A stretch of 64,000 nt of DNA from Escherichia coli (GTDB lineage Bacteria > Pseudomonadota > Gammaproteobacteria > Enterobacterales > Enterobacteriaceae). This document shows, piece by piece, positions 1-54,751 of this stretch. How positions within the stretch are numbered: position 1 is the first letter of the stretch; every line of letters starts with the position of its first letter. A program made the position numbers and the translations under genes. The notes beneath the pieces are model-generated. The model was not told the origin of the DNA. It saw only the letters and a list, made by a program, of their open reading frames with translations, and did no database searches. The stretch is from assembly GCF_050320075.1 (NCBI RefSeq), contig NZ_CP190018.1; one strand, written 5' to 3'.

Positions 1-2
1 AT

Positions 3-155
3 AACGTTAAGGGCGTTGCAGAGGGTTCTAAGGCCATCAGAATCACAACGGACCAACTGGAACTACTCAAAGCACAGTCCGCAGTAGCAGGTTGCTCAAT
101 GATTCAGGTGTTAAGCGCAAAGGTCCATCAATTAGCGGATAGGCTGGGGGTTTAA
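3..155 (+). CDS. 3' end of an unknown ORF running in from upstream of the window (partial, about 50 codons visible)
   Basis: Open frame from position 3 with no stop until TAA at 153-155; that stop overlaps the ATG at 155 of the next ORF (TAATG). Not in the ORF track because it has no start inside the window. Confidence 0.3.
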   Translation, partial: NVKGVAEGSKAIRITTDQLELLKAQSAVAGCSMIQVLSAKVHQLADRLGV

Positions 156-580
156 TGCTATGCACATTTGATTATCATGCGTTTTATCGCCATAGAGGCC
201 ACCTTGTCCGTGAGAATAGCGGAACATGGAAAGATTTAACTCGTAATGCTGAACCCTTCACACACCAGCAATTAAAATCCCGCTTCTCCAGATGGAAGAA
301 TGCACCAGCAGATACTGGTGATTTTGAGATTATCCATACCTTCGATTATGCCTCAGAAGATGACCTTCACGATGCAATTAAGCTGATTGAAGACTTCAAT
401 ACCTCAGAAGATGTGGATGGTGACAAATATAAATCCCGTGGTAACCGCTATAACCGTGATGATATCACTCAGGCCATAAATGCTGGTCAATCTCAGCGAT
501 ACATTACAGAAAAATATGGTATTTCACGGAGACAGTATTTCTACGTTAAATCATTGATTAATAAAGACAATTCAAAATAA
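155..580 (+). CDS. hypothetical protein, 141 aa, with a C-terminal helix-turn-helix-like segment
   Basis: ORF-track ORF; ATG overlaps the upstream stop (TAATG); C-terminal stretch DDITQAINAGQSQRYITEKYGISRRQYFYV resembles a DNA-binding HTH; AT-rich codon usage like the rest of the element. Confidence 0.5.
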   Translation: MLCTFDYHAFYRHRGHLVRENSGTWKDLTRNAEPFTHQQLKSRFSRWKNAPADTGDFEIIHTFDYASEDDLHDAIKLIEDFNTSEDVDGDKYKSRGNRYNRDDITQAINAGQSQRYITEKYGISRRQYFYVKSLINKDNSK

Positions 581-717
581 CCATCTCAGTAACGGTAGAA
601 TGCACTTTACAGGCAGAGTTGCACCTTAATTTGATAAATTACCTTACCAGCCAGTGCAACTCCCTCTGTAACCCGCATGATTACTGGTCTCAGAATGGCT
701 ATTTTAAGAGGTCTGAG

Positions 718-1065
718 ATGTGTTTTGTAGGAGATTTAAAAATGAACAACTTCCCATTACAGATTTTCGTTGATAACGACACCGCTATGATGGTGCAAAG
801 CTTCAGTGATGCAGGTATTAGCATTGATTTTGACAGGCTGTTAAAGCTAATGGCTGATAATGAAGAAAACGTCTCTGACTTTATTCACTCGGTGGAGTTT
901 AACGAGCCTCGAATGATGTTACCAATTACAGACAGTAATATGAAAAGATTGGTTATTGAGCAAACGAACAAATACAGTATTTCCCCAGAGCAATTTTTGA
1001 AAGGTGCTGTGACAATCCTGTACAGCGATAATATTTTGGTTACGGATTCCGTGAGGGTTCACTAA
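718..1065 (+). CDS. hypothetical protein, about 115 aa (alternative start at 742)
   Basis: ORF-track ORF 619..1065 begins at a TTG; a better start is ATG 718 preceded by AAGAGG (706-711), or ATG 742 preceded by GGAG. No recognisable motif. Confidence 0.45.
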   Translation: MCFVGDLKMNNFPLQIFVDNDTAMMVQSFSDAGISIDFDRLLKLMADNEENVSDFIHSVEFNEPRMMLPITDSNMKRLVIEQTNKYSISPEQFLKGAVTILYSDNILVTDSVRVH

Positions 1066-1142
1066 TGGGCTTAATAATTGCTTGGACGTTGCTTGGCTTA
1101 TTTGTTGGTTGCTGGGTAGGCAGCACAGTAAATAGAAATTGA
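1065..1142 (+). CDS. candidate 25-aa hydrophobic micro-protein (MGLIIAWTLLGLFVGCWVGSTVNRN)
   Basis: ATG at 1065-1067 overlaps the TAA stop of the preceding ORF (TAATG); a single predicted transmembrane stretch followed by a polar tail; too short to appear in the ORF track. Confidence 0.3.
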   Translation: MGLIIAWTLLGLFVGCWVGSTVNRN

Positions 1143-1166
1143 TGTTACCAATCTGTTAAAAAGCTG

Positions 1167-1195
1167 TTGACAAATAACCTTAAGCATGAGATGAT
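1167..1195 (+). promoter_or_regulatory. sigma70-like promoter candidate (TTGACA, 17-bp spacer, TGn-GATGAT)
   Basis: Perfect -35 hexamer TTGACA at 1167-1172, 17-bp spacer, TG at 1187-1188 and a weak -10 GATGAT at 1190-1195; followed immediately by a short GAGAG/CTCTC hairpin and a T-run. Confidence 0.35.
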
Positions 1196-1359
1196 GGTAA
1201 TAGGGGAGAGCAACTCTCTCTTATTTTTCTTTCAAAATAATCCGATGGATGGATATTCTGAATTGGAAAGGTGCAATGCTTTTCGTCATGGCCTTTCAGT
1301 TTAGTCTGAGAGGCTATCTCAAAAAGTGCTTAATCATTCATTGAACCCTTTACAGCTTT

Positions 1360-1388
1360 GCCCTAACTCATGATTAGGGCTTTCTTTA
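1360..1388 (+). terminator. intrinsic-terminator-like hairpin (GCCCTAA / TTAGGGC) followed by TTTCTTT
   Basis: Perfect 7-bp inverted repeat at 1360-1366 and 1374-1380 with a 7-nt loop, then a U-rich tract. Confidence 0.4.
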
Positions 1389-1636
1389 AGAGTTTTTAAA
1401 CAGAGCTTTTAAAGAAAGTTTTTCCTGAAACTTCGTTAACGTTAAAGCAAACCTTCAAAGCCCTTCACAGATGAGGATGATTCCATGAATATCCGAATCA
1501 CCTATGTTTAGGGCTTTTTTCAGCTTTTAAAAAGCATACTTGGCAAACGCCTTTTAAGCCTCTTCTAAGTTCGAGGATGTCAGGTGTGCTTTTTAAAAAC
1601 TGAAACATAAATTATCTTAGAAGAGGAAAGGTATTA

Positions 1637-2341
1637 ATGGCTATCCGTGATGAAAATGAAATGATTATTGAAAACAAACCAAGTGCACTTGATATTCACG
1701 AATTAAGTTTGCGTGAATCTTTTGATAGAGCTTGGCGGGAATCACACGAAGTAAATAAAGGTCCATATATTCCACCAGAACCACTCGAGATTCCAAGAGT
1801 TGAAATTGATTTTTCTATGAACGAACGGTGTGAACTTGATTTGAAGTTGAAGCTACAACGCCGATATTTCCAAGCTATTAAAGACTCTCAAGAAGCAATG
1901 AGAAGTGTTTATGAGAAAATTCAGTCCAAGCTTGAAGACGAAATTGACGAAATGGCTATTTTGATGGAGCTTCAAACCAATCCTTATGCTTATTTCTCTC
2001 GACTAGACCGTGACGGTTGGGGGTATGACCCTGTAGAGATTGGTAAAGTGATTGCAGATTTACCAGAAGGTCAAAGGGTTATTCGTACGGAAAGGGCCAT
2101 CAGAGCGCCACATCAACTGTCTCTAATTGTTGCTGATAAATCACAAGCTGAGCTTGAAGAAATTGCCAAAGAGAAACTGATGAAAGCAAGAGAAAATGAG
2201 ATTAATTTGCTGAAATCAAGACTGGCTAAGCTGATTAGTGACCATCAAGCGCTGGCTAAGGAGTACCGTCAAGAGTTGGCACAGATTATCAGCTTCAATG
2301 ATTTTCTGAGTGTTCCACGAGAATTTAGCAAGGCTGTTTGA
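1637..2341 (+). CDS. hypothetical acidic protein, 234 aa
   Basis: Strong RBS (AGAGGAAAGG) 7 nt upstream of the ATG; glutamate- and lysine-rich with an apparently helical C-terminal half; no motif recognised. Confidence 0.6.
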   Translation: MAIRDENEMIIENKPSALDIHELSLRESFDRAWRESHEVNKGPYIPPEPLEIPRVEIDFSMNERCELDLKLKLQRRYFQAIKDSQEAMRSVYEKIQSKLEDEIDEMAILMELQTNPYAYFSRLDRDGWGYDPVEIGKVIADLPEGQRVIRTERAIRAPHQLSLIVADKSQAELEEIAKEKLMKARENEINLLKSRLAKLISDHQALAKEYRQELAQIISFNDFLSVPREFSKAV

Positions 2342-2364
2342 TTATGAATTAAAAGAGGTGATTA

Positions 2365-2583
2365 ATGTATGAAGACCGTTTGGAAACTATCAAGGCAGTT
2401 TGTGAAAAACTTAAAAACCAACCACGTAAACCAAAAACGGTAAAGAGTAAGCATCAGCCTGTCACCTCAAACAGCAAAATAAAGATTCGCAAAATTCCTT
2501 CGTGGTGCATTGACCGTATTCCGGTTGGTTCAAGAATTATTCGTGAAGATGGTGATTATCATTGGGTATCAGTTGTTGGTTAG
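2365..2583 (+). CDS. hypothetical small basic protein, 72 aa
   Basis: RBS AAAGAGGTGA upstream of the ATG; lysine/arginine-rich; followed by an intrinsic terminator. Confidence 0.5.
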   Translation: MYEDRLETIKAVCEKLKNQPRKPKTVKSKHQPVTSNSKIKIRKIPSWCIDRIPVGSRIIREDGDYHWVSVVG

Positions 2584-2598
2584 TTAGTAAAAATCTAC

Positions 2599-2638
2599 GG
2601 GAGAGATTATCGAGTGATATCGGTAGCTCTCCCTTTTT
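2599..2638 (+). terminator. rho-independent terminator
   Basis: GGGAGAG (2599-2605) pairs with CTCTCCC (2627-2633), followed by TTTTT. Confidence 0.55.
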
Positions 2639-2671
2639 CGTATATGAACACTTAAGAGGTGAAAAATATGA

Positions 2672-4804
2672 ATGAGCAAATTCACAGTTGATAGTTTTAT
2701 CGTTGAATTAAGCTTCAATGAAAACATTATTAAGGGCTTGCAAAGAGTTGAAAAGGCAGCTTTGCAGTCAGCACAAAGAATTGAAAAGAACCTAAATAAA
2801 GGTTTCAGGATTAATACAAAGCAGCTTGATAGTAATTTAACGGCTTCTTTAGGGCAGCTTGAAAGGAAGTTTAATAAGGCCTTTGACAAGATTGAACAGA
2901 GAGCAAGAAATACTAAAGCTTTCCAGTTTACCACCAGATTTAATGACACTGTTAATCCTCCAAAACAACCGAGACAGCCACGAATTAGCGGCAACAGAGC
3001 AATCACAGCAGCTTACTCAGCGAATATGAGCAAGCTAAAAGGCTTTGACCCTATTTTGCAGAAATACATCAAATCTCAGTTTTACGGGCTATCTGCTAAA
3101 GCCGGTTCAATGGATTCTTCAAAATTCAATGAGAAGTTAGCTCAGTTAAACGCTTCAGTCAGAGAAGCAATTGCTAAAGCCAGAGGTCATACATCCACCA
3201 GCATTAATGGTGACAGAGCAGCTAATAGTCTTGATAACCTGTCTTCAGCAGCAGTTAAAACAGCAGGTGCATTTATCTCAATGCAGGCTGTATTAGCCAG
3301 TTATCAGAAGATTATGGAAATTGGTTTACAGCGTGCAAGTGCTGAACGTTCAATTGATTTCGTATTTGATAAAGATGCAGGTCAAGTAAAAGAGTTCACA
3401 AAGTCATTAGCTCAAACAACGGGTTTAGATATCGCTGAACTGCAATCACAGTTTGCTGGTTTTGGTGCTTCAGCTAAAGAGTCTATGGGCATTCAAGGTT
3501 CTGAAGAACTTTTTAAAAATATGATTGGCTATGCTCGTCTGATGGGGAGAAGTGAAGAAGAGATTAAGCGAGCACTGACAGCATTATCACAGATGGCTGG
3601 TAAGGGTCAGGTTATGGCTGAAGAGCTTAAGGGGCAATTAGCTGAAGCTGTTCCTGGTATGGTTCAGGTATTCGCTAAAGCAACCGGAAGGAATGAACAA
3701 GAGCTATTTGATGCCATGAAGAAGGGGGCTTTAAAATCTGCCGATACTCTTCAGAAGGTCACTCAGGAACTGAATAAACAAATCACCGCTAAAGGTGGCT
3801 GGAAAGCTATTTCAGAAAGTACACAGGCACAACTAGGGAACCTGAAAAACTCTTGGAATACCACGCTTGATAGTATCTTCAGAGGTTCTGAAGATGGTCT
3901 GCAAGATTTTACAAGAAGCTTAACAACGCTTTTAAACGCTCTTGGTGGAAGTGGTAAAAGTCTTGGTGAATCTCTTGGTAGTCTCATGACTTCTATGTCA
4001 CATGGTGTCGATTCATTGACTGATATCAGCTACAGGGTAAGAGCATTCTTCGATGAGGTGACATTAGCTTACCGTTCACTAAATGACACTCAGAAAAAAA
4101 TTGTTGATGGTTTATCTGATGGGTTAATTGATGGTTTGAAGATGCTTGCCGTAGCTGTTACTGCTCAAAAGGCTGCAAATGTAGCTGGAGGCTTGTTAAA
4201 CCTTGCAAATGCTGTTACTTCATTCGGTGATGCTGTTAATAAAGCTAAAGCTGGCAAGGCTGGTTCTTCAGGTGGTGCGCTAAATAAAGTTGGTAGAGTT
4301 GTTCTTTATGCTGAGTTGGTGAACTTTGCTCTTGATAATTTAAACCCTGAAGCGGCTAAGAATCCGAACTTACACCAATCAGGTATTGGAACAGAGACAA
4401 ACTTCAACCCTGAATACAAAGGCGATTCATCTAAACCAAACCAAATTAATGATGGATGGGCTAAGATTGGTAGTTCTATCGCTGACTGGTTTAATGGTGC
4501 GGCTAATAAAATTGCTAACTTCCAAGACCCGATGAATAACTTTGTTAATAACACACAATCAACTCCACCAGCTATCACAGGTGACATGGTTAATAGCAAT
4601 GCTCAACTTGCTATGGCTGTATCAGAGTTAGGAAGAAAGGTAGACGCTTTAACAGTAGAAGCTAAGAAGCCTTTATCAGTTAATATCAAAGGTGAAGCAA
4701 TTGTTAGACCGGATGAACCAGCTTTCTTTACTTTCAATCAATCAGCTAATGACCAGTTCACGCAGGATATGCTCTTAAGTTCAAGCTATCCAGAGGAAGA
4801 ATGA
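2672..4804 (+). CDS. phage tail tape-measure-domain protein (TMP-like), 710 aa
   Basis: RBS AAGAGGTG upstream; helical, alanine/glycine/lysine-rich; the segment ALTALSQMAGKGQVMAEELKGQLAEAVPGMVQVFAKATGRNEQELFDAMKKGALKSADTLQKV matches, from memory, the conserved core of phage tape-measure proteins. Confidence 0.6.
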   Translation: MSKFTVDSFIVELSFNENIIKGLQRVEKAALQSAQRIEKNLNKGFRINTKQLDSNLTASLGQLERKFNKAFDKIEQRARNTKAFQFTTRFNDTVNPPKQPRQPRISGNRAITAAYSANMSKLKGFDPILQKYIKSQFYGLSAKAGSMDSSKFNEKLAQLNASVREAIAKARGHTSTSINGDRAANSLDNLSSAAVKTAGAFISMQAVLASYQKIMEIGLQRASAERSIDFVFDKDAGQVKEFTKSLAQTTGLDIAELQSQFAGFGASAKESMGIQGSEELFKNMIGYARLMGRSEEEIKRALTALSQMAGKGQVMAEELKGQLAEAVPGMVQVFAKATGRNEQELFDAMKKGALKSADTLQKVTQELNKQITAKGGWKAISESTQAQLGNLKNSWNTTLDSIFRGSEDGLQDFTRSLTTLLNALGGSGKSLGESLGSLMTSMSHGVDSLTDISYRVRAFFDEVTLAYRSLNDTQKKIVDGLSDGLIDGLKMLAVAVTAQKAANVAGGLLNLANAVTSFGDAVNKAKAGKAGSSGGALNKVGRVVLYAELVNFALDNLNPEAAKNPNLHQSGIGTETNFNPEYKGDSSKPNQINDGWAKIGSSIADWFNGAANKIANFQDPMNNFVNNTQSTPPAITGDMVNSNAQLAMAVSELGRKVDALTVEAKKPLSVNIKGEAIVRPDEPAFFTFNQSANDQFTQDMLLSSSYPEEE

Positions 4805-4967
4805 TTTCTTATATATCCGTGTGCTACGTGATTTCTTCTGAACAGATATACCCACTAAAAATTATTTTTTACGTAGCTCACGCTTAACAGAGAAAATACT
4901 TATATATCAAAGGCTTGGTTAAAAATGATTAAAATACACTAAGCCTTTGAAATCAAAGGAGAATTTA

Positions 4968-5741
4968 ATGATTTACTCTAATCAGATTCGTTACAGTGGT
5001 AAAGATGGCGTTTACTTTCATCTACAAGGCCAGCCAGATAATTTCTTGTCACTATCAGCTACTGAGAACATGGAATTTGACAGCCCTATGATGGTTACCA
5101 CTCAAAATATGCAATCAGGGCAGACTGTCACAGATAATGTAATGCGTTCACCCAGAACTATTTCAATCAGTGGTGTGGTTGTAGTTGGTGAATCCGGTAG
5201 TATCCTTATCTCAAGAGATAATAAGCTGGTGGAAAACTTCATAGACACTCTTGAAAACTGGCGTGACCAGAAGCAAATTATCTCAGTTGTCTGTAAAGAT
5301 GGTATTAAGATTGACGACTCAATTATTACAAACTTTAAAGCCTCTAAAGATGTTGGTATTGCCAATGGTCTTAGAATCCAATTAACTTTTCAGGAAATTA
5401 ACTTTAAAGCTATTGTGGGTCAGACTGATATCTCGGCTGCGACCGGAAGGACTTCTACCACAAGTGATGGTGGTGCTACCAGTAAAAAGAATACAGGGAA
5501 CACTACGACAAGCTTAGGTAACGGTATGTTGATGTGTCAGGAGCTATATAATCGCTCTACGAGTGAACTTACTAATGAGCAACTTCAAGCCCGTATCAAT
5601 TGTGGTAAAAATGTCAGAGTTAAGAACGGAAAAAGCACCTTCTCAGATGCCGCTAATGAGCAAGCTTCAAAGGTGCTTAATAATGCTGGTACAGGTAGTA
5701 CTTTGAAGAAGTATTCTGTTAATCCTAACAAGCGATACTGA
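4968..5741 (+). CDS. hypothetical protein, 257 aa; possibly a distal-tail-like protein, judged only by position after the tape-measure gene
   Basis: ORF-track ORF 4947..5741 begins at a TTG; preferred start is ATG 4968 preceded by AAGGAG. The N-terminal half looks beta-strand-rich and the C-terminal half is Ser/Thr/Gly/Asn-rich. Confidence 0.5.
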
Positions 5742-5755
5742 CGATAGAATCTCAA

Positions 5756-7279
5756 CTATATGATAACCTCATCAACATCTATTAAACCCCTCTCAGTGAC
5801 TTCAGAAAGCGACTGTATAGCCTCTGTAACGTTGTCTGAGGGGTTTTCTGTTATTGGTAAGGTGATTGCTTTACCGTTGTGAAAAGTTACTTTACAGCGA
5901 CGTTTAGCAGTATTTAAAACGACCTCTTTAACAGCACTTTTGATTATCAGTTGTGCTTCAATCCTTCCCGCCTTTGTAGTCAAGTCACAATCAGACAAAC
6001 AACCCACATCAATAGATTTAAGGCGTTGTGTCTCCTTCTCGATATCCGCATCAACTTGTGATAGCTCATTCTTTAGTTGTCTTAGTTTGCTGGTAATAGC
6101 GGACAAGTCTTCAATTTCAAGTGATAGCTGTACCAGCTTTTCAATATTGCTTGAGATGTGTTCACGGTGTAGCTTCAGTGTGTCTATGGTATTCGTCATA
6201 TCGCTATCAAATCGGTCAAGACGAGATAGCAGGGCAAGCAATGTACCATCGGTTTGCTTACGTGAAAGTCCTTTAGCACTACAACGGTTTTCATTACGAA
6301 GAGGACAACGATAAATCCCGTTTCTTGTATCGCTAAAGCCTGTGATAATCAAAGCATGACCACATTCAGAACAACGGATAACACCTTTGAAAAGATTCAC
6401 AGCCATTGGCTTATCTGAAGCAGGTTTTCTACCGTAACGAGCATATGATAGTTGTTGAACTTTGTAGAATGTTGTTTCATCTATAATTGCAGGATAATAA
6501 CCAGATATCTCCTCACAGCCTTTAGGTGTGAAGTAACCAATTACAGAGCGATTCTTCAAAAGGTCTTGCACTGAGGTTTGACCAAACTTACCTGCTTTGT
6601 ACTGGTTAAGCGTCTGGTGACCTTCAGCATTAAGAGTTCTGACAATCTCCCAGATAGACTTACCCTCTAACCGTAGCTGAAAGCACCTCTTCACAGTCTC
6701 CACTTTCTCAGGTATCACAGAGAAGCTTTTACGGTCATCATTAAGCTTAAGCCATGCAGGACAACGCCTAGAAATCTTGATACCAGCTTTAGCAGCTTCT
6801 TTCTTTGCATCCCATGCAGCTTGTATACGCTCAGCCTTACGTAATGATTCCTCATGCGCCCTTTGCATTATCAAAATGCTTTTAATCAGAGCTAACGGGT
6901 CTTTAAGAGATTCCCTTGTGTAATGTTCACCATCGGACAGGGTGACTACATCTACACCAGAGCGAAGAATGTTTCTGAGTAGCTCACTTGCTTGGTCTAC
7001 GTCCTGACGTGAGAGACGGTCTAAACTCTCGATTAGTAGTGTATCACCAGCTTTAACAAGCCCTTTCTCGATAGCGGTTAAAAAGTCACCTAAGCCACCT
7101 TTCAAGTGCTTACCAGTGAACCCGCTAACGCCTAAATCACGAAAAGTAAGGGATTCATCCAGATAGTACTCAGGATGAGCCTTAAGCCAATCAGTGACCA
7201 TCTTAGCCTGTCGTCTTAATGAGTCGCCTCTGGATTGCTTCTCAGATGAAAACCGGATGTAACTGATTGCACGTTTCAT
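5756..7279 (-). CDS. large serine recombinase (phage-type serine integrase), 507 aa
   Basis: N-terminal resolvase-type catalytic domain (ISYIRFSSEKQSRGDSL...LLIESLDRLSRQ), a central recombinase region, a cysteine-rich zinc-ribbon-like motif (CSECGHALIITG...YRCPLRNENRCSAKG) and a coiled-coil C-terminus; convergent with the cargo genes and adjacent to the host junction. Confidence 0.85.
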   Translation of the reverse strand: MKRAISYIRFSSEKQSRGDSLRRQAKMVTDWLKAHPEYYLDESLTFRDLGVSGFTGKHLKGGLGDFLTAIEKGLVKAGDTLLIESLDRLSRQDVDQASELLRNILRSGVDVVTLSDGEHYTRESLKDPLALIKSILIMQRAHEESLRKAERIQAAWDAKKEAAKAGIKISRRCPAWLKLNDDRKSFSVIPEKVETVKRCFQLRLEGKSIWEIVRTLNAEGHQTLNQYKAGKFGQTSVQDLLKNRSVIGYFTPKGCEEISGYYPAIIDETTFYKVQQLSYARYGRKPASDKPMAVNLFKGVIRCSECGHALIITGFSDTRNGIYRCPLRNENRCSAKGLSRKQTDGTLLALLSRLDRFDSDMTNTIDTLKLHREHISSNIEKLVQLSLEIEDLSAITSKLRQLKNELSQVDADIEKETQRLKSIDVGCLSDCDLTTKAGRIEAQLIIKSAVKEVVLNTAKRRCKVTFHNGKAITLPITENPSDNVTEAIQSLSEVTERGLIDVDEVII

Positions 7280-7346
7280 TGTTCACCTCACCAATAGCAG
7301 TTGGGCTTGTACCAACCCCTAGATTGTATCGCTTTAGATGGTGTAT

Positions 7347-7841
7347 TTAAACGTGTCTAATAAAAATCACCCGATTAACGCCGCGCTGATGTAAACCGCG
7401 ATTAAGCGTTTGTTCCTCTTCCCCTTTGGCGAAAAACTGTGGATGGCGGACTTCCACACCATAATTAAATTCGCCGGGAAGGGAATCGAGAAAATGCCAA
7501 AGCGCAGGCAGATCCCGTGGGCCAAATGTGGCAGGCAGTTGCAGCCAGTATTGCCCAATGCGCGGCGCTAACGGTGACATGCGGGTCAAAAATTCAGTCA
7601 CTAAATCATCGCAATGCCGTAATGCTGCCTGATGCGAAATGGTCGCCGGAAACTTAAAACAGAAGCGAAAATTATCTGTGGTCTGCTCACGCCAGCGCAG
7701 GACAACCTCGGATTTCGGCAGGGCGTAAAGCGTGGTGTTGCCCTCCACACAGTTAAAGTGGCGGGCATACTCTTCAAGGCTGGTGATCCCCAACCGCACC
7801 CATTTAGGATGCGACCATTGCGGCAGACCGATGTAAATCAT
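7347..7841 (-). pseudogene. yecE: yecE (DUF72 family), 5' portion only: reading frame interrupted by the insertion
   Basis: N-terminus [29 protein letters not shown] matches recalled YecE; the frame stops after 164 codons (intact YecE is about 272 aa from memory) exactly where GC-rich host sequence changes to the AT-rich element. Confidence 0.7.
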
Positions 7842-30354: not shown

Positions 30355-31524
30355 TTAAGCCGCAACCGTCTGTGTGACGGATTTACGCTGGCCTCCATGG
30401 GCAGAAACGACGAGTCCCGCCGCTTGTAATTCCAGTATGCCCTTGCGTTTGATGTTGAGCGCCGCGTTGATATCGCGGTCATGTTCAACTCCACACTCTG
30501 GACACTGCCAGATGCGCTTATGTAATGGCATCTCCGACATTTTGTGACCGCAGCAGTGGCAGGTCTTCGAACTGGCGAACCATTGATCCAGTTTCACCAG
30601 ATGCACACCTTTCTCTGTTGCTTTGTATTCCAGTTTTGTGATGAATCCAGACCATCCAGCATCGCCTATCGCACGAGCCAGATGGTGATTTTTCATCATA
30701 TTTGCCATTTTCAATGTCTCGACAATTACCGCTTGGTTTTCGTCAACAATTGCGCGAGATAACTTGTGCTGGAAATCGGCACGGGCACCGGCTACCCGTT
30801 CGTGAACGGCTGCAAGTTGTATTCTGGCTTTGCGCCTGTTTGCGCTCCCTTTTTTCTTACGGGACAGTGCTTTCTGCTTCCGGCGCAGGTTGCGACTTGC
30901 ATTGATTAGGTGGCGGGGACTGGCAATTTTATTGCCGTCCGATTTGATGACAAAATGCGCCAGCCCCATATCCAGCCCTGTCACATTTGATATCAGTGCG
31001 GGCTTTGCCGGCGCTTCCATCCCGTCGTCACAGAGTAACGACGCGTAGTATTTCCCGGTTGCGCTGCGGCTCAACGTGATACTTTTCAGCATTCCCGTAA
31101 TTTCACGATGTAAACGCGCTTCAATCGGCAAGATTTTCGGTATTTTTATCGCAGCATCAAGGACTTTTATGCCAACACAATGGTAGCTCGATTGTCTGCC
31201 GTGTTTACTTTTAAAGGTAGGTTTACCTGCTTTCAGTTTCGGATTGAAAAAGTTAGAAAAAGCCACGTCGAGGTTAATTACCGCCTGCTGCAACGCAATA
31301 GAATCATATTCTTTAAGCCATCCATACCGGCGGGATTTCTTCGCCACTGCAAGCAGTGGTTTGAGGTCTTTACGCGGGTTTAAATTTACGCGGTGCCGCT
31401 GGTAAGAATGTTTCTTGATATGCAGAGCTTTGTTGTACGCAAAACGCACTGCACCGAACTGGGCGTTGATAAATTCAGCCTGTTCTGGTGTCGGGTAGAT
31501 GCGTACTTTTGTTGCTCTTAACAT
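30355..31524 (-). CDS. tnpB: IS200/IS605-family TnpB (OrfB; RuvC-like RNA-guided nuclease family)
   Basis: 389-aa ORF with an OrfB N-terminal HTH region, a RuvC-like core and a C-terminal zinc finger (CHCCGHKMSEMPLHKRIWQCPECGVEHDRDINAALNI). Confidence 0.85.
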   Translation of the reverse strand: MLRATKVRIYPTPEQAEFINAQFGAVRFAYNKALHIKKHSYQRHRVNLNPRKDLKPLLAVAKKSRRYGWLKEYDSIALQQAVINLDVAFSNFFNPKLKAGKPTFKSKHGRQSSYHCVGIKVLDAAIKIPKILPIEARLHREITGMLKSITLSRSATGKYYASLLCDDGMEAPAKPALISNVTGLDMGLAHFVIKSDGNKIASPRHLINASRNLRRKQKALSRKKKGSANRRKARIQLAAVHERVAGARADFQHKLSRAIVDENQAVIVETLKMANMMKNHHLARAIGDAGWSGFITKLEYKATEKGVHLVKLDQWFASSKTCHCCGHKMSEMPLHKRIWQCPECGVEHDRDINAALNIKRKGILELQAAGLVVSAHGGQRKSVTQTVAA

Positions 31525-31580
31525 AATCAGCGCTCATTGATATAATGCTTTTATTTTAACACTTTAGGTAAATATATCAA

Positions 31581-32006
31581 TTGAGTAATCATGATGATTT
31601 ACTGGCGGGATTTCTCCGCAAACGACACAGTGTCAGTAAGCTGGTTGTGCACCTTATTTTTACGACAAAGTATCGACGCAAACTATTCGACAGTCAGATG
31701 ATCGCTCAGTTGCGTGAGGCTTTTGGCTCCGCTGCGGCAAAGCTTGAATGCGAAATTATTGAGATGGACGGGGAGCCAGACCATGTACACCTGCTGGTTG
31801 CCTACCCGCCAAAACTGGCGGTCAGTGTGATGGTCAATAATTTAAAATCGGTATCATCACGTTTGCTACGCCAGCAGAACGCGCATTTACGCATGCAGAG
31901 TAAAACGGGGCTTTTGTGGTCGAGATCGTACTTTGTCTGTAGCACCGGAGAGGCAACGATTGAAACGCTCAGAGCCTACGTTCAGAGTCAGTCAACACCT
32001 GATTGA
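31581..32006 (+). CDS. tnpA: IS200/IS605-family TnpA (HuH Y1 transposase)
   Basis: 141-aa ORF with a TTG start; HuH motif HVHLLV and a catalytic-Tyr region WSRSYFVCSTG. Confidence 0.8.
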   Translation: MSNHDDLLAGFLRKRHSVSKLVVHLIFTTKYRRKLFDSQMIAQLREAFGSAAAKLECEIIEMDGEPDHVHLLVAYPPKLAVSVMVNNLKSVSSRLLRQQNAHLRMQSKTGLLWSRSYFVCSTGEATIETLRAYVQSQSTPD

Positions 32007-50902: not shown

Positions 50903-51694
50903 ATGGCTAACGCAGATCTGGATAAACAGCCTGATTCTGTATCTTCCGTGCTGAAAGTTTTTGGCATTTTGCAGGCGCTGGGTGAAGAGCGCGAAATAGG
51001 GATAACCGAGCTGTCGCAGCGCGTCATGATGTCAAAAAGCACCGTTTATCGCTTTTTACAGACCATGAAAACCTTAGGTTATGTGGCGCAGGAAGGGGAG
51101 TCGGAGAAATATTCCCTGACCCTGAAATTGTTTGAACTGGGCGCTCGCGCGTTACAAAACGTCGATTTAATTCGTAGCGCAGATATCCAGATGCGTGAGA
51201 TCTCCCGCCTGACCAAAGAAACTATCCACCTCGGCGCACTGGACGAAGACAGTATTGTTTACATTCACAAAATTGACTCTATGTACAATTTGCGCATGTA
51301 TTCACGGATTGGGCGTCGTAATCCGCTGTACAGCACCGCGATTGGTAAGGTACTGCTGGCATGGCGCGATCGCGATGAAGTGAAGCAAATTCTTGAGGGC
51401 GTGGAGTATAAACGCAGTACCGAGCGGACCATCACCAGTACAGAAGCGTTATTACCCGTTCTGGACCAGGTGCGTGAGCAGGGGTATGGCGAAGATAACG
51501 AAGAGCAGGAAGAAGGGCTGCGATGCATTGCGGTTCCGGTATTTGATCGCTTTGGCGTGGTCATTGCCGGTCTTAGCATCTCCTTCCCGACGTTGCGTTT
51601 CTCTGAAGAGCGTTTACAGGAATATGTCGCAATGTTGCATACCGCGGCGCGCAAAATTTCTGCCCAAATGGGTTATCACGACTATCCGTTCTGA
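50903..51694 (+). CDS. kdgR: IclR-family transcriptional regulator KdgR
   Basis: 263-aa ORF with an N-terminal HTH and an IclR effector domain. Confidence 0.9.
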   Translation: MANADLDKQPDSVSSVLKVFGILQALGEEREIGITELSQRVMMSKSTVYRFLQTMKTLGYVAQEGESEKYSLTLKLFELGARALQNVDLIRSADIQMREISRLTKETIHLGALDEDSIVYIHKIDSMYNLRMYSRIGRRNPLYSTAIGKVLLAWRDRDEVKQILEGVEYKRSTERTITSTEALLPVLDQVREQGYGEDNEEQEEGLRCIAVPVFDRFGVVIAGLSISFPTLRFSEERLQEYVAMLHTAARKISAQMGYHDYPF

Positions 51695-51837
51695 TGAGAG
51701 TAAGAACCTGTCTGAATATCAAACAGACAGGTTCTTTATTTAGCATGAGAAAAATAAAGTTGAAGGTGGCGTTATATTAAACGCACTTGCGATAAGAATA
51801 TTTTACTCATGAGTGAGAATCTGGTTATTTATTACCC

Positions 51838-52077
51838 TTAACCATTATCGACCACAATATTGCTTTTACGTAACAACGGGCAATCTGTTATCCCCAGAAA
51901 ACCACTTTTAGTGTGCAGGTATTGTACCGTGCTGGTGCCTCTGGCGGTCAGATAGGTACATTGCAAACCTAATCCCGCGGCATTCTCTTTGCTTCCAATC
52001 AAAACGCCATATCCGCTGAGTAATAATCCTATCCATACCAGTGCTATCAGCATAACTGTGCGAATGATGAATCGCAT
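51838..52077 (-). CDS. yobH: small membrane protein YobH
   Basis: 79-aa ORF with an N-terminal hydrophobic helix. Confidence 0.7.
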   Translation of the reverse strand: MRFIIRTVMLIALVWIGLLLSGYGVLIGSKENAAGLGLQCTYLTARGTSTVQYLHTKSGFLGITDCPLLRKSNIVVDNG

Positions 52078-52234
52078 TACAACCTCTTCTCTTTTTATGT
52101 TCGCTTAATCGTAGCGGCAATATGCGCTGAAGCAAGCGACTCATTCTGAAAAAGCACGAATATCGACATAGTTAGGCGCTGTTTAACTAACGCATGCTAG
52201 TTTAATGACATAAGGTAGGTGAAACGGAGATTGG

Positions 52235-52378
52235 AGTGAAAAAGTTTCGATGGGTCGTTCTGGTTGTCGTGGTGTTGGCTTGCTTGCTGCTTTGGGCGCA
52301 GGTATTCAACATGATGTGCGATCAGGATGTACAATTTTTCAGCGGAATTTGTGCCATTAACCAGTTTATCCCGTGGTG
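52235..52378 (+). CDS. mgrB: PhoQ-inhibiting small membrane protein MgrB (47 aa)
   Basis: GTG start; translation [47 protein letters not shown] matches recalled MgrB; too short for the ORF track. Confidence 0.8.
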
Positions 52379-52453
52379 ATATCATTTTTTCAGCACTAGA
52401 TTTTCTTCCTCTCCAGCAGTGGTAGAATAGCGCCTCTACTCAGAGGTGGTGAA

Positions 52454-52741
52454 ATGAACGAAGTTGTAAATTCAGGCGTGATGAACATTGCGTCTTTGGT
52501 TGTATCGGTGGTGGTTCTTTTTATCGGGCTTATCTTGTGGTTTTTTATCAATCGTGCCAGTTCACGGACTAACGAACAGATTGAACTGCTTGAGGCGTTG
52601 CTGGATCAGCAAAAACGTCAAAATGCTCTGTTACGTCGTTTGTGCGAAGCAAACGAACCTGAGAAAGCAGATAAAAAGACCGTTGAGAGTCAAAAATCGG
52701 TTGAAGACGAAGATATTATTCGTCTGGTCGCCGAACGATAA
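52454..52741 (+). CDS. yebO: small membrane protein YebO
   Basis: 95-aa ORF MNEVVNSGVMNIASLVVSVVVLFIGLILWFF. Confidence 0.8.
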   Translation: MNEVVNSGVMNIASLVVSVVVLFIGLILWFFINRASSRTNEQIELLEALLDQQKRQNALLRRLCEANEPEKADKKTVESQKSVEDEDIIRLVAER

Positions 52742-53410
52742 TCCTTCCTCAATCTTGAGTAACCCCGTCGTTGAAGGGTTACTCAATTCATCCTGATTAT
52801 ACGCACTGTCATGGTGCAACTGCTTCAAATTAAAACTCTGGTCTGACTTCAAATAATTATCATATTATTTATTTGCGTAACGGGATATCAGAAAAAGATA
52901 TTTAGCCCATTAATTTATTAGGATGTTTACATCGGATTTGTGATTAAGCGTGGTATTATTTATTAGCGAAACGTTTCTCTCTTGATTTTTTTGCGCATTC
53001 ATCAATTTTTCTTATTTTAAATTTACAATACCTTTGGCGATTGACTTCTCTTTGGGGTGATCGATAGCCGTTAACTGACTGTTTTATGAGAAAAATTGAT
53101 ATAACTTTTTATTCATTGCATAGCAGAAAATGTGATATTGCACGCACTATGTAATAACTTCTCCCACTGGCCTGGAACAACTGAACTTATTGAACTATGT
53201 TAGAAAATACGTCAGTTTAAGTATCTGCCTGAACTGGCAAGGTTAAGCACAATGATATATCGGCGCGTATTCCGTTGCATAAGTGTGCAAAAAAAGTGGA
53301 AGACGTATCGAGATTTGTGCGTCTGATCGAGACATGTTTAAAAATGGCTTGCCATAATTAACGTTGTATGTGATAACAGATTTCGGGTTAAACGAGGTAC
53401 AGTTCTGTTT

Positions 53411-53554
53411 ATGTGTGGCATTTTCAGTAAAGAAGTCCTGAGTAAACACGTTGACGTTGAATACCGCTTCTCTGCCGAGCCTTATATTGGTGCCTCATGC
53501 AGTAATGTGTCAGTTTTATCTATGTTATGCCTGCGGGCGAAGAAAACAATCTAA
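53411..53554 (+). CDS. yobF: small protein YobF (47 aa)
   Basis: [47 protein letters not shown], 13 bp upstream of cspC; too short for the ORF track. Confidence 0.75.
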
Positions 53555-53566
53555 GGAATTTTTCAA

Positions 53567-53776
53567 ATGGCAAAGATTAAAGGTCAGGTTAAGTGGTTCA
53601 ACGAGTCTAAAGGTTTTGGCTTCATTACTCCGGCTGATGGCAGCAAAGACGTGTTCGTACACTTCTCTGCAATCCAGGGTAATGGTTTCAAAACTCTGGC
53701 TGAAGGTCAGAACGTTGAGTTCGAAATTCAGGACGGTCAGAAAGGTCCGGCAGCTGTTAACGTAACAGCTATCTGA
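53567..53776 (+). CDS. cspC: cold-shock-family protein CspC
   Basis: [37 protein letters not shown]. Confidence 0.95.
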
Positions 53777-53822
53777 TCGAATCCACTGATCTGAAGTGTG
53801 AATACGCTTCAATCTCGCTATA

Positions 53823-53850
53823 AAGCCTCGTCGAATGCGAGGCTTTTTAC
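53823..53850 (+). terminator. rho-independent terminator after cspC
   Basis: AAAGCCTCG-TCGAATG-CGAGGCTTTTT. Confidence 0.6.
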
Positions 53851-53941
53851 TTTGCTTTATCTTCGCTCCAGTCGTTCGGATATTTGCCCGCCGCGTGATT
53901 CGCGTTACACTTGCGGCCTTTAGTATCCTGCCGGAGTTGTC

Positions 53942-54751
53942 ATGTCGTTTTCCTGTCCACTTTGCCATCAGCCTCTTTCGCGTGAAAAAAACAGCTATAT
54001 CTGTCCCCAGCGACATCAGTTTGATATGGCGAAAGAAGGGTATGTCAATCTGCTGCCCGTTCAGCATAAACGGTCTCGTGATCCGGGCGACAGCGCGGAA
54101 ATGATGCAAGCACGCCGCGCATTCTTAGATGCCGGACATTATCAGCCGCTGCGTGATGCAATTGTCGCTCAACTGCGGGAACGGCTTGATGAAAAGGCCA
54201 CAGCGGTGCTGGATATTGGCTGTGGTGAAGGGTATTACACACACGCATTTGCCGATGCGTTGCCCGAAATCACCACGTTTGGCCTGGATGTCTCGAAGGT
54301 AGCGATAAAAGCGGCGGCGAAACGATATCCGCAGGTCACTTTTTGTGTTGCTTCCAGCCACCGTTTGCCGTTTTCCGATACCAGTATGGACGCCATAATA
54401 CGTATTTACGCGCCGTGTAAAGCAGAAGAATTAGCGCGAGTAGTGAAGCCTGGCGGTTGGGTCATTACTGCCACGCCGGGACCGCGACATTTGATGGAGC
54501 TGAAGGGGCTGATTTACAATGAAGTACATCTTCATGCACCTCATGCAGAACAACTGGAAGGTTTTACATTACAGCAGAGTGCTGAGTTGTGTTATCCGAT
54601 GCGTCTTCGCGGTGATGAAGCCGTCGCATTATTGCAGATGACGCCGTTTGCCTGGCGTGCGAAGCCAGAAGTCTGGCAAACACTGGCAGCAAAAGAAGTG
54701 TTCGACTGCCAGACGGACTTTAATATTCACCTCTGGCAGCGTTCTTATTAA
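53942..54751 (+). CDS. rlmA: 23S rRNA m1G745 methyltransferase
   Basis: N-terminal zinc-binding Cys motif (CPLCHQPL...YICPQRH) and SAM-binding motif [11 protein letters not shown]. Confidence 0.9.

Follow-up and report, generated by a model that had tools for sequence, protein, structure and literature searches.

The gap of 669 bp between yebO and yobF in Escherichia coli probably serves the yobF-cspC operon as an extended upstream control region, continuous with the 3' end of the yebO unit, and not as one long leader. Transcription is initiated mainly at -26 from the promoter TTGCCA-17-GATAAC, located in a near-invariant block of 98 bp. An overlapping second proximal promoter would produce a start approximately 48 nt upstream of yobF. 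A distal promoter, P2, has its start at -202 and gives rise to a minority of transcripts, whose 202-nt leader extends across the proximal promoters. P2 (approximately -202 to -240) and the modules located at approximately -120 to -160 and -390 to -470 would be protein-binding or promoter elements, as their conservation suggests. They would be held at fixed distances, with the AT-rich DNA between them, which binds H-NS in vitro, evolving about as fast as unconstrained sequence. The first approximately 200 bp past yebO would consist of a terminator-like hairpin and otherwise unconstrained DNA, possibly what is left at the place where other genera have a metallo-hydrolase gene. The cspA-type post-transcriptional control of cspC would reside downstream, in the segment that contains yobF.

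The gap was analyzed as part of a 64,000-nucleotide stretch of E. coli DNA (the window), where the local order is kdgR, yobH (minus strand), mgrB, yebO (52454-52741), the gap, yobF (53411-53554), cspC (53567-53776) and rlmA. An earlier note, made from the sequence, had described an AT-rich region of approximately 670 bp before yobF-cspC, and the description was exact: the gap extends from 52742 to 53410, between the end of yebO at 52741 and the yobF ATG at 53411. Its GC content is 35.6% compared to 49.1% for the whole window, and 200-bp windows across it range between 31.5 and 39%, with the minimum at 31.5%. None of the other annotated intergenic gaps in the window, about 68 in all, is as long; the next ones measure 571, 428 and 395 bp. 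The DNA is 100% identical to that of strain YZLc1-3 over the query and 98.8% to that of K-12, in the reverse orientation with respect to MG1655, whose counterpart gap is also 669 bp long (NC_000913.3 1907592-1908260). Of 5426 complete E. coli genomes, 5423 contain the region with an identity of at least 95%, and it is single-copy. The features of the gap and the examples taken from the comparison loci are compiled in the table. Other observations were made in the same window. The cspC locus (53567-53776; b1823 in MG1655) is called cspE by PGAP in most RefSeq E. coli genomes, an annotation inconsistency. The window opens (1-7841) in a prophage-like segment with genes for a tape measure protein, a baseplate protein and a recombinase beside a truncated DUF72 gene, and an IS200/IS605-family element (tnpA plus TnpB) is located at 30355-32006, between yebE and ptrB.

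Table. Features of the yebO-yobF gap and examples from comparison loci (window positions unless a locus is named).
Feature	Position	Strand	Description
yebO-proximal stretch	52742..52938	.	No conservation outside Escherichia
Hairpin, 11-bp stem	52755..52786	+	14 nt past the yebO stop; fold z = -3.1; no U-tract
Module A, far-upstream island	52939..53025	+	TGTGA, LacI-family palindrome, promoter-like stretch
AGCGAAACGTTTCTCT	52965..52980	.	15/16 match to the rbsD operator core AGCGAAACGTTTCGCT; central CG
Module B	53082..53137	+	Mainly Escherichia, Salmonella, Citrobacter
Module C = distal promoter P2	53172..53209	+	-35 TGGAAC (53173-53178), -10 TATGTT (53196-53201), start 53209
P2 transcript leader	53209..53410	+	202 nt; first ~104 nt variable in sequence, constant in length; traverses P1
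Module D (GATATAT ... GCATAA-N3-TGC)	53255..53288	+	32/77 spacers, 22 bp from the proximal block
Proximal block	53313..53410	+	98 bp; 88-95% identity in the 79 comparison loci that include the block
Second proximal promoter GAGACA-18-CATAAT	53329-53358	+	Sigma-70, overlaps P1; start ~53363-53365
P1 promoter TTGCCA-17-GATAAC	53349-53377	+	Sigma-70-type; start 53384-53387
26-nt 5' UTR of the main transcript	within 53313..53410	+	SD GAGG at 53394-53397, where OxyS pairs
cspA-like mRNA	53391..53851	+	Rfam RF01766, 137.7 bits (gathering score 78); includes yobF, cspC
IS1 insertion example	L094 about 380-1150		Strain GDSC2227PM; further match H13
Hydrolase gene examples	L003 1468-2469; L038 1479-2474		Among loci L003-L082

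The main start of yobF is located 24-27 nt before the ATG, at window positions 53384-53387, in four published data sets. Kim et al. 2012 (PMC3415461, supplement) list a yobF start at 1905641 with 249 reads and a 26-nt 5' UTR, equivalent to window position 53385. A start at -25/-26 was also obtained by 5' RACE combined with 454 sequencing (PMC2760140), and both tagRNA-seq (PMC7075262) and a sigma-S ChIP-seq study (PMC4447067), in which the sigma-S peak spans 53242-53479, agree on it. The starts of Kim et al. 2012 were determined from exonuclease-enriched primary transcripts by 5' RACE sequencing in exponential phase, and the start-site lists used here come from exponential-phase cultures, in which promoters that work under other conditions would escape detection. 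The hexamers, the spacing and the mapped start of P1 fit a sigma-70-type promoter, which is likewise given by Shimada et al. 2014 (PMC3946193). When the E. coli region was compared by BLASTN with the comparison loci, a sharp conservation boundary was found at 53313; the block downstream of it was compared in 79 loci, one further locus being truncated at that point, and P1 is invariant across the 79. A Salmonella yobF::sfgfp construct (PMC10965054) begins at GTTGTATGTGATAACAG, equivalent to window position 53363, i.e., -48, in agreement with the second proximal promoter. Other factors have been connected to this stretch. The RpoN holoenzyme gave an in vitro SELEX peak at approximately 53374, at the proximal promoter, and the authors of that study suggest a role for it as a repressor of the operon when nitrogen is limiting; the small RNA OxyS has a pairing site near the yobF Shine-Dalgarno sequence.

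A second yobF start in the list of Kim et al. 2012 (PMC3415461) has the coordinate 1905817, is backed by 107 reads, gives a 5' UTR of 202 nt and corresponds to window position 53209; the upstream sequence printed for it is identical to that of the window, ending at 53209. P2 thus combines -35 and -10 hexamers at a 17-bp spacing with a mapped primary start, the hexamers matching at only 3-4 of 6 positions. The corresponding module C is present in 51 of 77 spacers at a fixed distance of 102-109 bp from the proximal block, with the family consensus TGGACG-17-TATGGT, and its conservation stops at the mapped P2 start. A similar start may exist in Salmonella. In strain 4/74, a SalComMac start is reported at 1893683 (PMC10965054, Table 1), and transposon insertions are described 172 and 181 nt past it ("5' UTR") and 546 nt past it ("in cspC") (PMC10965054). 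Taking the S. enterica locus L084 as the reference (yobF 2501-2644, cspC 2657-2866), the distance of the cspC insertion places the Salmonella start 181-390 nt upstream of yobF and therefore excludes the proximal starts. The Salmonella start, which was placed indirectly via the distances between reported coordinates, is consistent with a counterpart of the E. coli -202 start. The same S. enterica locus carries, at 3086-4831, a gene for a 581-aa penicillin-binding protein (PBP dimer and transpeptidase domains) between cspC and rlmA that is absent in E. coli.

For the comparison across genera, the YobF alignment was used to collect 80 loci, one per Enterobacteriaceae species. The order mgrB-yebO-...-yobF-cspC is kept in all 76 loci that extend far enough upstream. 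Upstream of 53313, BLASTN aligned the E. coli sequence over its whole extent to E. albertii alone, and in patches to Citrobacter; the modules were found by all-against-all comparison and nhmmer profiles over 77 spacers. Module A was detected by nhmmer in 73 of the 77, approximately 250-300 bp upstream of the proximal block. Its palindrome is followed in most genera by TTGATG-17-CATTAT, and conservation ends abruptly about 7-10 nt later; this promoter-like stretch is degenerate in E. coli. Module B reads GTGACA-17-CATAAA in Salmonella and Citrobacter and is also degenerate in E. coli, and the start list of PMC3415461 has no mapped E. coli start at either module A or module B. In the comparison of E. 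coli with E. albertii, identity is 79-98% in the modules, compared to 55-73% in most of the intervening segments, and complete in the 24 bp that immediately precede the proximal block. One of the loci (L069, CACSKA010000003.1), labelled Chryseobacterium sp. 18061, has the mgrB-yebO-yobF-cspC arrangement typical of Enterobacteriaceae and groups with Pluralibacter-like sequences; it is probably a mislabelled or contaminated assembly.

Other interpretations of these elements were considered. A coding function of module A was ruled out by indels of 2-4 nt and inconsistent reading frames. An inverted repeat in module A (TGCCTCA/TGAGGCA, TGCTTCA/TGAAGCA or TGCAT/ATGCA) shows apparent compensatory changes in several genera. 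The repeat might form a hairpin in those genera, but it is absent in Escherichia, Salmonella and Citrobacter and no U-tract follows it. The gap was also considered as a "promoter island", and this was rejected by a crude measure, a promoter consensus scan that found 3 promoter-like sites in the gap versus 3.4 in shuffled sequences.

The stretch next to yebO has a different character. The hairpin that begins 14 nt past yebO is the only notably stable RNA element of the gap and is probably the 3'-end or terminator hairpin of the mgrB/yebO transcripts; related species have different, species-specific hairpins at the same place after yebO. The mean identity of 52742-52938 is 30% to Salmonella and Citrobacter and 73% to E. 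albertii. At 52803-52817 there is an inverted repeat, GCAC-N7-GTGC (GCACTGTCATGGTGC), which recurs at a comparable position after yebO in E. albertii and several Citrobacter, despite the unconserved sequence that surrounds it. Some natural E. coli isolates have an IS1 insertion in this unconserved stretch of the gap, approximately 40-90 bp past yebO. In about 33 of the 80 loci, a gene for a 333-aa MBL-fold hydrolase (PF12706) is found between yebO and yobF, and in these loci 404-462 bp of AT-rich non-coding DNA separate the hydrolase gene from the conserved block. Remnants of the gene were found in three Buttiauxella genomes, and the E. cloacae complex (E. cloacae/hormaechei) has kept the last approximately 70 bp of it, which suggests that the gene is probably ancestral and was lost repeatedly and independently. 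No remnant was detected in E. coli by tblastn or by a profile search of six-frame translations with E values up to 10. By analogy, 52742-52938 may be the scar of the ancient loss of a metallo-hydrolase gene; since E. coli has no detectable remnant, the analogy is with Buttiauxella and the E. cloacae complex.

These observations bear on whether the gap has a function at all beyond its proximal promoters. It could consist of a decayed hydrolase scar and drifting, H-NS-coated DNA, with the modules as leftovers, as would agree with the hydrolase gene found in 33 loci and its remnants in other genomes, the very fast divergence of the inter-module DNA and the tolerated IS1 insertions. We consider this unlikely. 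The modules persist across genera where the flanking DNA is saturated with changes, and one of them is an experimentally mapped promoter. The hydrolase-bearing loci, furthermore, keep the same modules at the same distances within their 404-462 bp, so the long upstream region predates any gene loss, and E. coli itself retains nothing recognizable of the hydrolase gene. An extended control region remains the preferred reading of the DNA upstream of the proximal block.

The earlier note had taken the whole gap for a leader, and had compared it to the long structured 5' UTRs of cold-shock genes. The first of these ideas stands for the last 202 nt, as the leader of a minor transcript, but not for the remainder: the main leader has 26 nt, and no start is mapped in 52742-53208, which is approximately 70% of the gap, in the published exponential-phase lists. 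The next start listed upstream of 1905817 is that of yebO (PMC3415461). Of the two observations that the note had named as speaking against a leader, a start near yobF was found, at -26, whereas the absence of an upstream transcript was not, given the start at -202. The cold-shock comparison was correct in that a cspA-like leader (RF01766) does exist, but it lies downstream (53391-53851) and barely touches the gap. Given these coordinates of the RF01766 match, it is the yobF-containing segment that forms the cspA-type leader of cspC. The supposed RNA structure was not borne out, with no folding excess, consensus structure or covariation among 19 sequences. Folding did not exceed that of shuffles, either for the whole gap (z = -0.57) or for the 202-nt leader (z = -0.89), and RNAalifold applied to 19 genus-level P2-leader sequences predicted no pairs in the variable 104 nt and 0 compensatory pairs.

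Taken as a whole, a structured AT-rich 5' UTR of approximately 670 bp with cold-shock-type post-transcriptional control is exceedingly improbable. The 202-nt leader, the long regulatory leaders of other cspA-family mRNAs and the yebO hairpin, which lacks a U-tract and makes some read-through conceivable, could be seen as signs of it. However, the main start lies at -26 and the lists have no entry from -202 back to yebO, the cspA homology begins only at 53391, the folding and covariation results gave no indication of structure, and the conserved modules upstream of 53313 end at start sites, which is the pattern of promoters and not that of an RNA. The start-site maps largely refute a leader of that length. 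Within the segment with cspA homology, the yobF ORF lies inside 53391-53566, the stretch aligned to the cspA 5' UTR in the Rfam model. The first approximately 25 codons of yobF are near-invariant across Enterobacterales, and the C-terminus is variable in both length and sequence; this pattern suggests that the constraint on yobF may be partly at the RNA level and not at the protein level.

The gap might also hide an unannotated small RNA or small-protein gene, a possibility that the earlier note had raised and that we regard as very improbable. The length of the gap leaves room for one, module A resembles a promoter followed by unconserved sequence, and an in vitro run-off array study obtained signal from the intergenic probe set for this spacer. 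On the other hand, no start is mapped at module A in E. coli, and the MG1655 RefSeq annotation has no feature in the counterpart of the gap. When 51500-54500 was searched against Rfam at permissive thresholds, no further match was found in the gap apart from the 20 nt that the cspA match covers at its end. The best sub-threshold match had E = 0.94 and rested on the yebO hairpin, no small RNA family was matched, and a terminator consensus scan found no intrinsic terminator within the gap on either strand. With no family match at E < 0.9, no internal terminator and P1 and P2 as the only starts, the gap does not look like a small RNA gene. The claim of the earlier note that there is no ORF of at least 60 codons was correct for ORFs wholly within the gap. 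On the minus strand, one ORF of 73 aa (52631-52852) and one of 68 aa (53243-53449) straddle its edges, antisense to yebO or yobF; they are unannotated and have no Pfam match. Among 14 small ORFs of at least 12 codons, only one is intact outside Escherichia, in a single one of seven Salmonella/Citrobacter sequences, so that the gap yielded no conserved small ORF. Four of the 14 are intact in E. albertii, which is of little weight because all four run into the well-conserved promoter-proximal DNA from approximately 53255 onward. The gap is an ordinary, documented multi-promoter spacer and not a giant leader, a small RNA or a hidden gene.

The palindrome in module A provides the one element of the gap with a recognizable candidate regulator. 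The rbsD control region of MG1655 was read directly, and TCAGCGAAACGTTTCGCTGA was found just upstream of rbsD, which we take to be the RbsR operator known for the rbsDACBKR operon (Mauzy and Hermodson 1992, as cited in PMC10965054). The site at 52965-52980 is identical in the Salmonella locus (AGCGAAACGTTTCTCT), and it is the single place in the 64-kb window where the exact GCGAAACGTTTC occurs. The core GAAACGTTT is kept in 64 of the 77 spacers and has only 7 occurrences in 414 kb of flanking sequence; a match of at least 13/16 to the operator was found in 58 of 77 spacers, compared to 1 of 1540 shuffles. PurR, Cra and CRP sites, as well as sigma-32, sigma-E and sigma-54 promoters, were compared with the modules by eye using their consensus sequences, and in this comparison they fit poorly and RbsR was clearly the best operator match. 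Between the rbs operator and the site in the gap, the left half-site AGCGAAAC is identical, and the right half-site varies between genera.

The location of the candidate site differs from that of the rbs operator. While the latter lies shortly before the rbsD start codon, near its own promoter, the candidate site is approximately 430 bp before yobF. Its center precedes the P2 start by approximately 237 bp and the P1 start by approximately 413 bp, and the site is thus away from both promoters; a distance of approximately 240 bp from the nearest mapped start is an unusual placement for a repressor of the LacI family. Since the operator is of a near-perfect RbsR type, a sugar-responsive repressor, if it acts here, would probably work over a distance or control a promoter with little strength in E. 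coli. In the proximal promoter, the invariant spacer (53360-53367) includes TTAACGTTGT, whose AACGTT core is typical of LacI-family half-sites. One may speculate that TTAACGTTGT is a weak second site with which the far-upstream palindrome could form a loop.

Judging from the sequence, module A could be a working RbsR operator, maybe coupled to a third promoter in other genera or conditions, which would link ribose to yobF-cspC. We advance this tentatively and consider it unlikely. A published summary of RbsR genomic SELEX mentions 5 sites and 3-4 targets, and gives only these counts. In Salmonella, rbsR and cspC mutants were recovered in one screen for fast growth on succinate (PMC10965054), and this co-recovery is only suggestive of an RbsR link. 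If the operator were functional, it would directly explain the recovery of both kinds of mutants in the succinate screen, and it could also bear on the effect of RbsR on RpoS levels (PMC10965054).

Most of this picture was available before. Shimada et al. 2014 (PMC3946193) described an H-NS genomic SELEX site and, "within 670 bp spacer", multiple peaks of the RpoD holoenzyme, and the binding of H-NS to the AT-rich gap (GC 31.5-39%) is an in vitro result obtained by genomic SELEX. A 2026 paper names the operon promoters yobFp1, yobFp2 and cspCp8 and describes yobF-cspC as a mutational hotspot. The multiple promoters and the in vitro H-NS binding are thus already published, and the RbsR-like site is the only new lead. 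The RNA chaperone CspC has effects on RpoS, stress responses and virulence, and adaptive mutations recurrently hit yobF-cspC. The two mapped promoters together with the conserved far-upstream elements should aid in the interpretation of intergenic mutations and IS insertions at this locus, and the putative RbsR-like operator, recognized by its conserved sequence, offers one testable new lead from the gap.

The arrangement can be compared with known systems. Like the cspA mRNA with its 5' UTR/thermoregulator (RF01766), the mRNA of cspC, a cspA paralogue, has a cspA-like leader of approximately 180 nt. Unlike what had been supposed for the gap, this leader lies downstream of it, with the yobF ORF inside; the RF01766 alignment takes in no more than the final 20 nt of the gap, and the remaining gap has no homology to the cspA model. 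P1 (-26) and P2 (-202), which give one operon two leaders, are tandem promoters with alternative 5' UTRs of the kind described by Kim et al. 2012, and the two-leader arrangement is nothing unusual, considering that 26.5% of E. coli genes have multiple starts (Kim et al. 2012, PMC3415461). As a long spacer with multiple promoters and H-NS sites, the gap is comparable in type to the 847-bp mngB-cydA spacer, which has five cydAB promoters (Shimada et al. 2014, PMC3946193). The fixed spacing of the modules of the yobF gap across genera is described here and not by Shimada et al. 2014.
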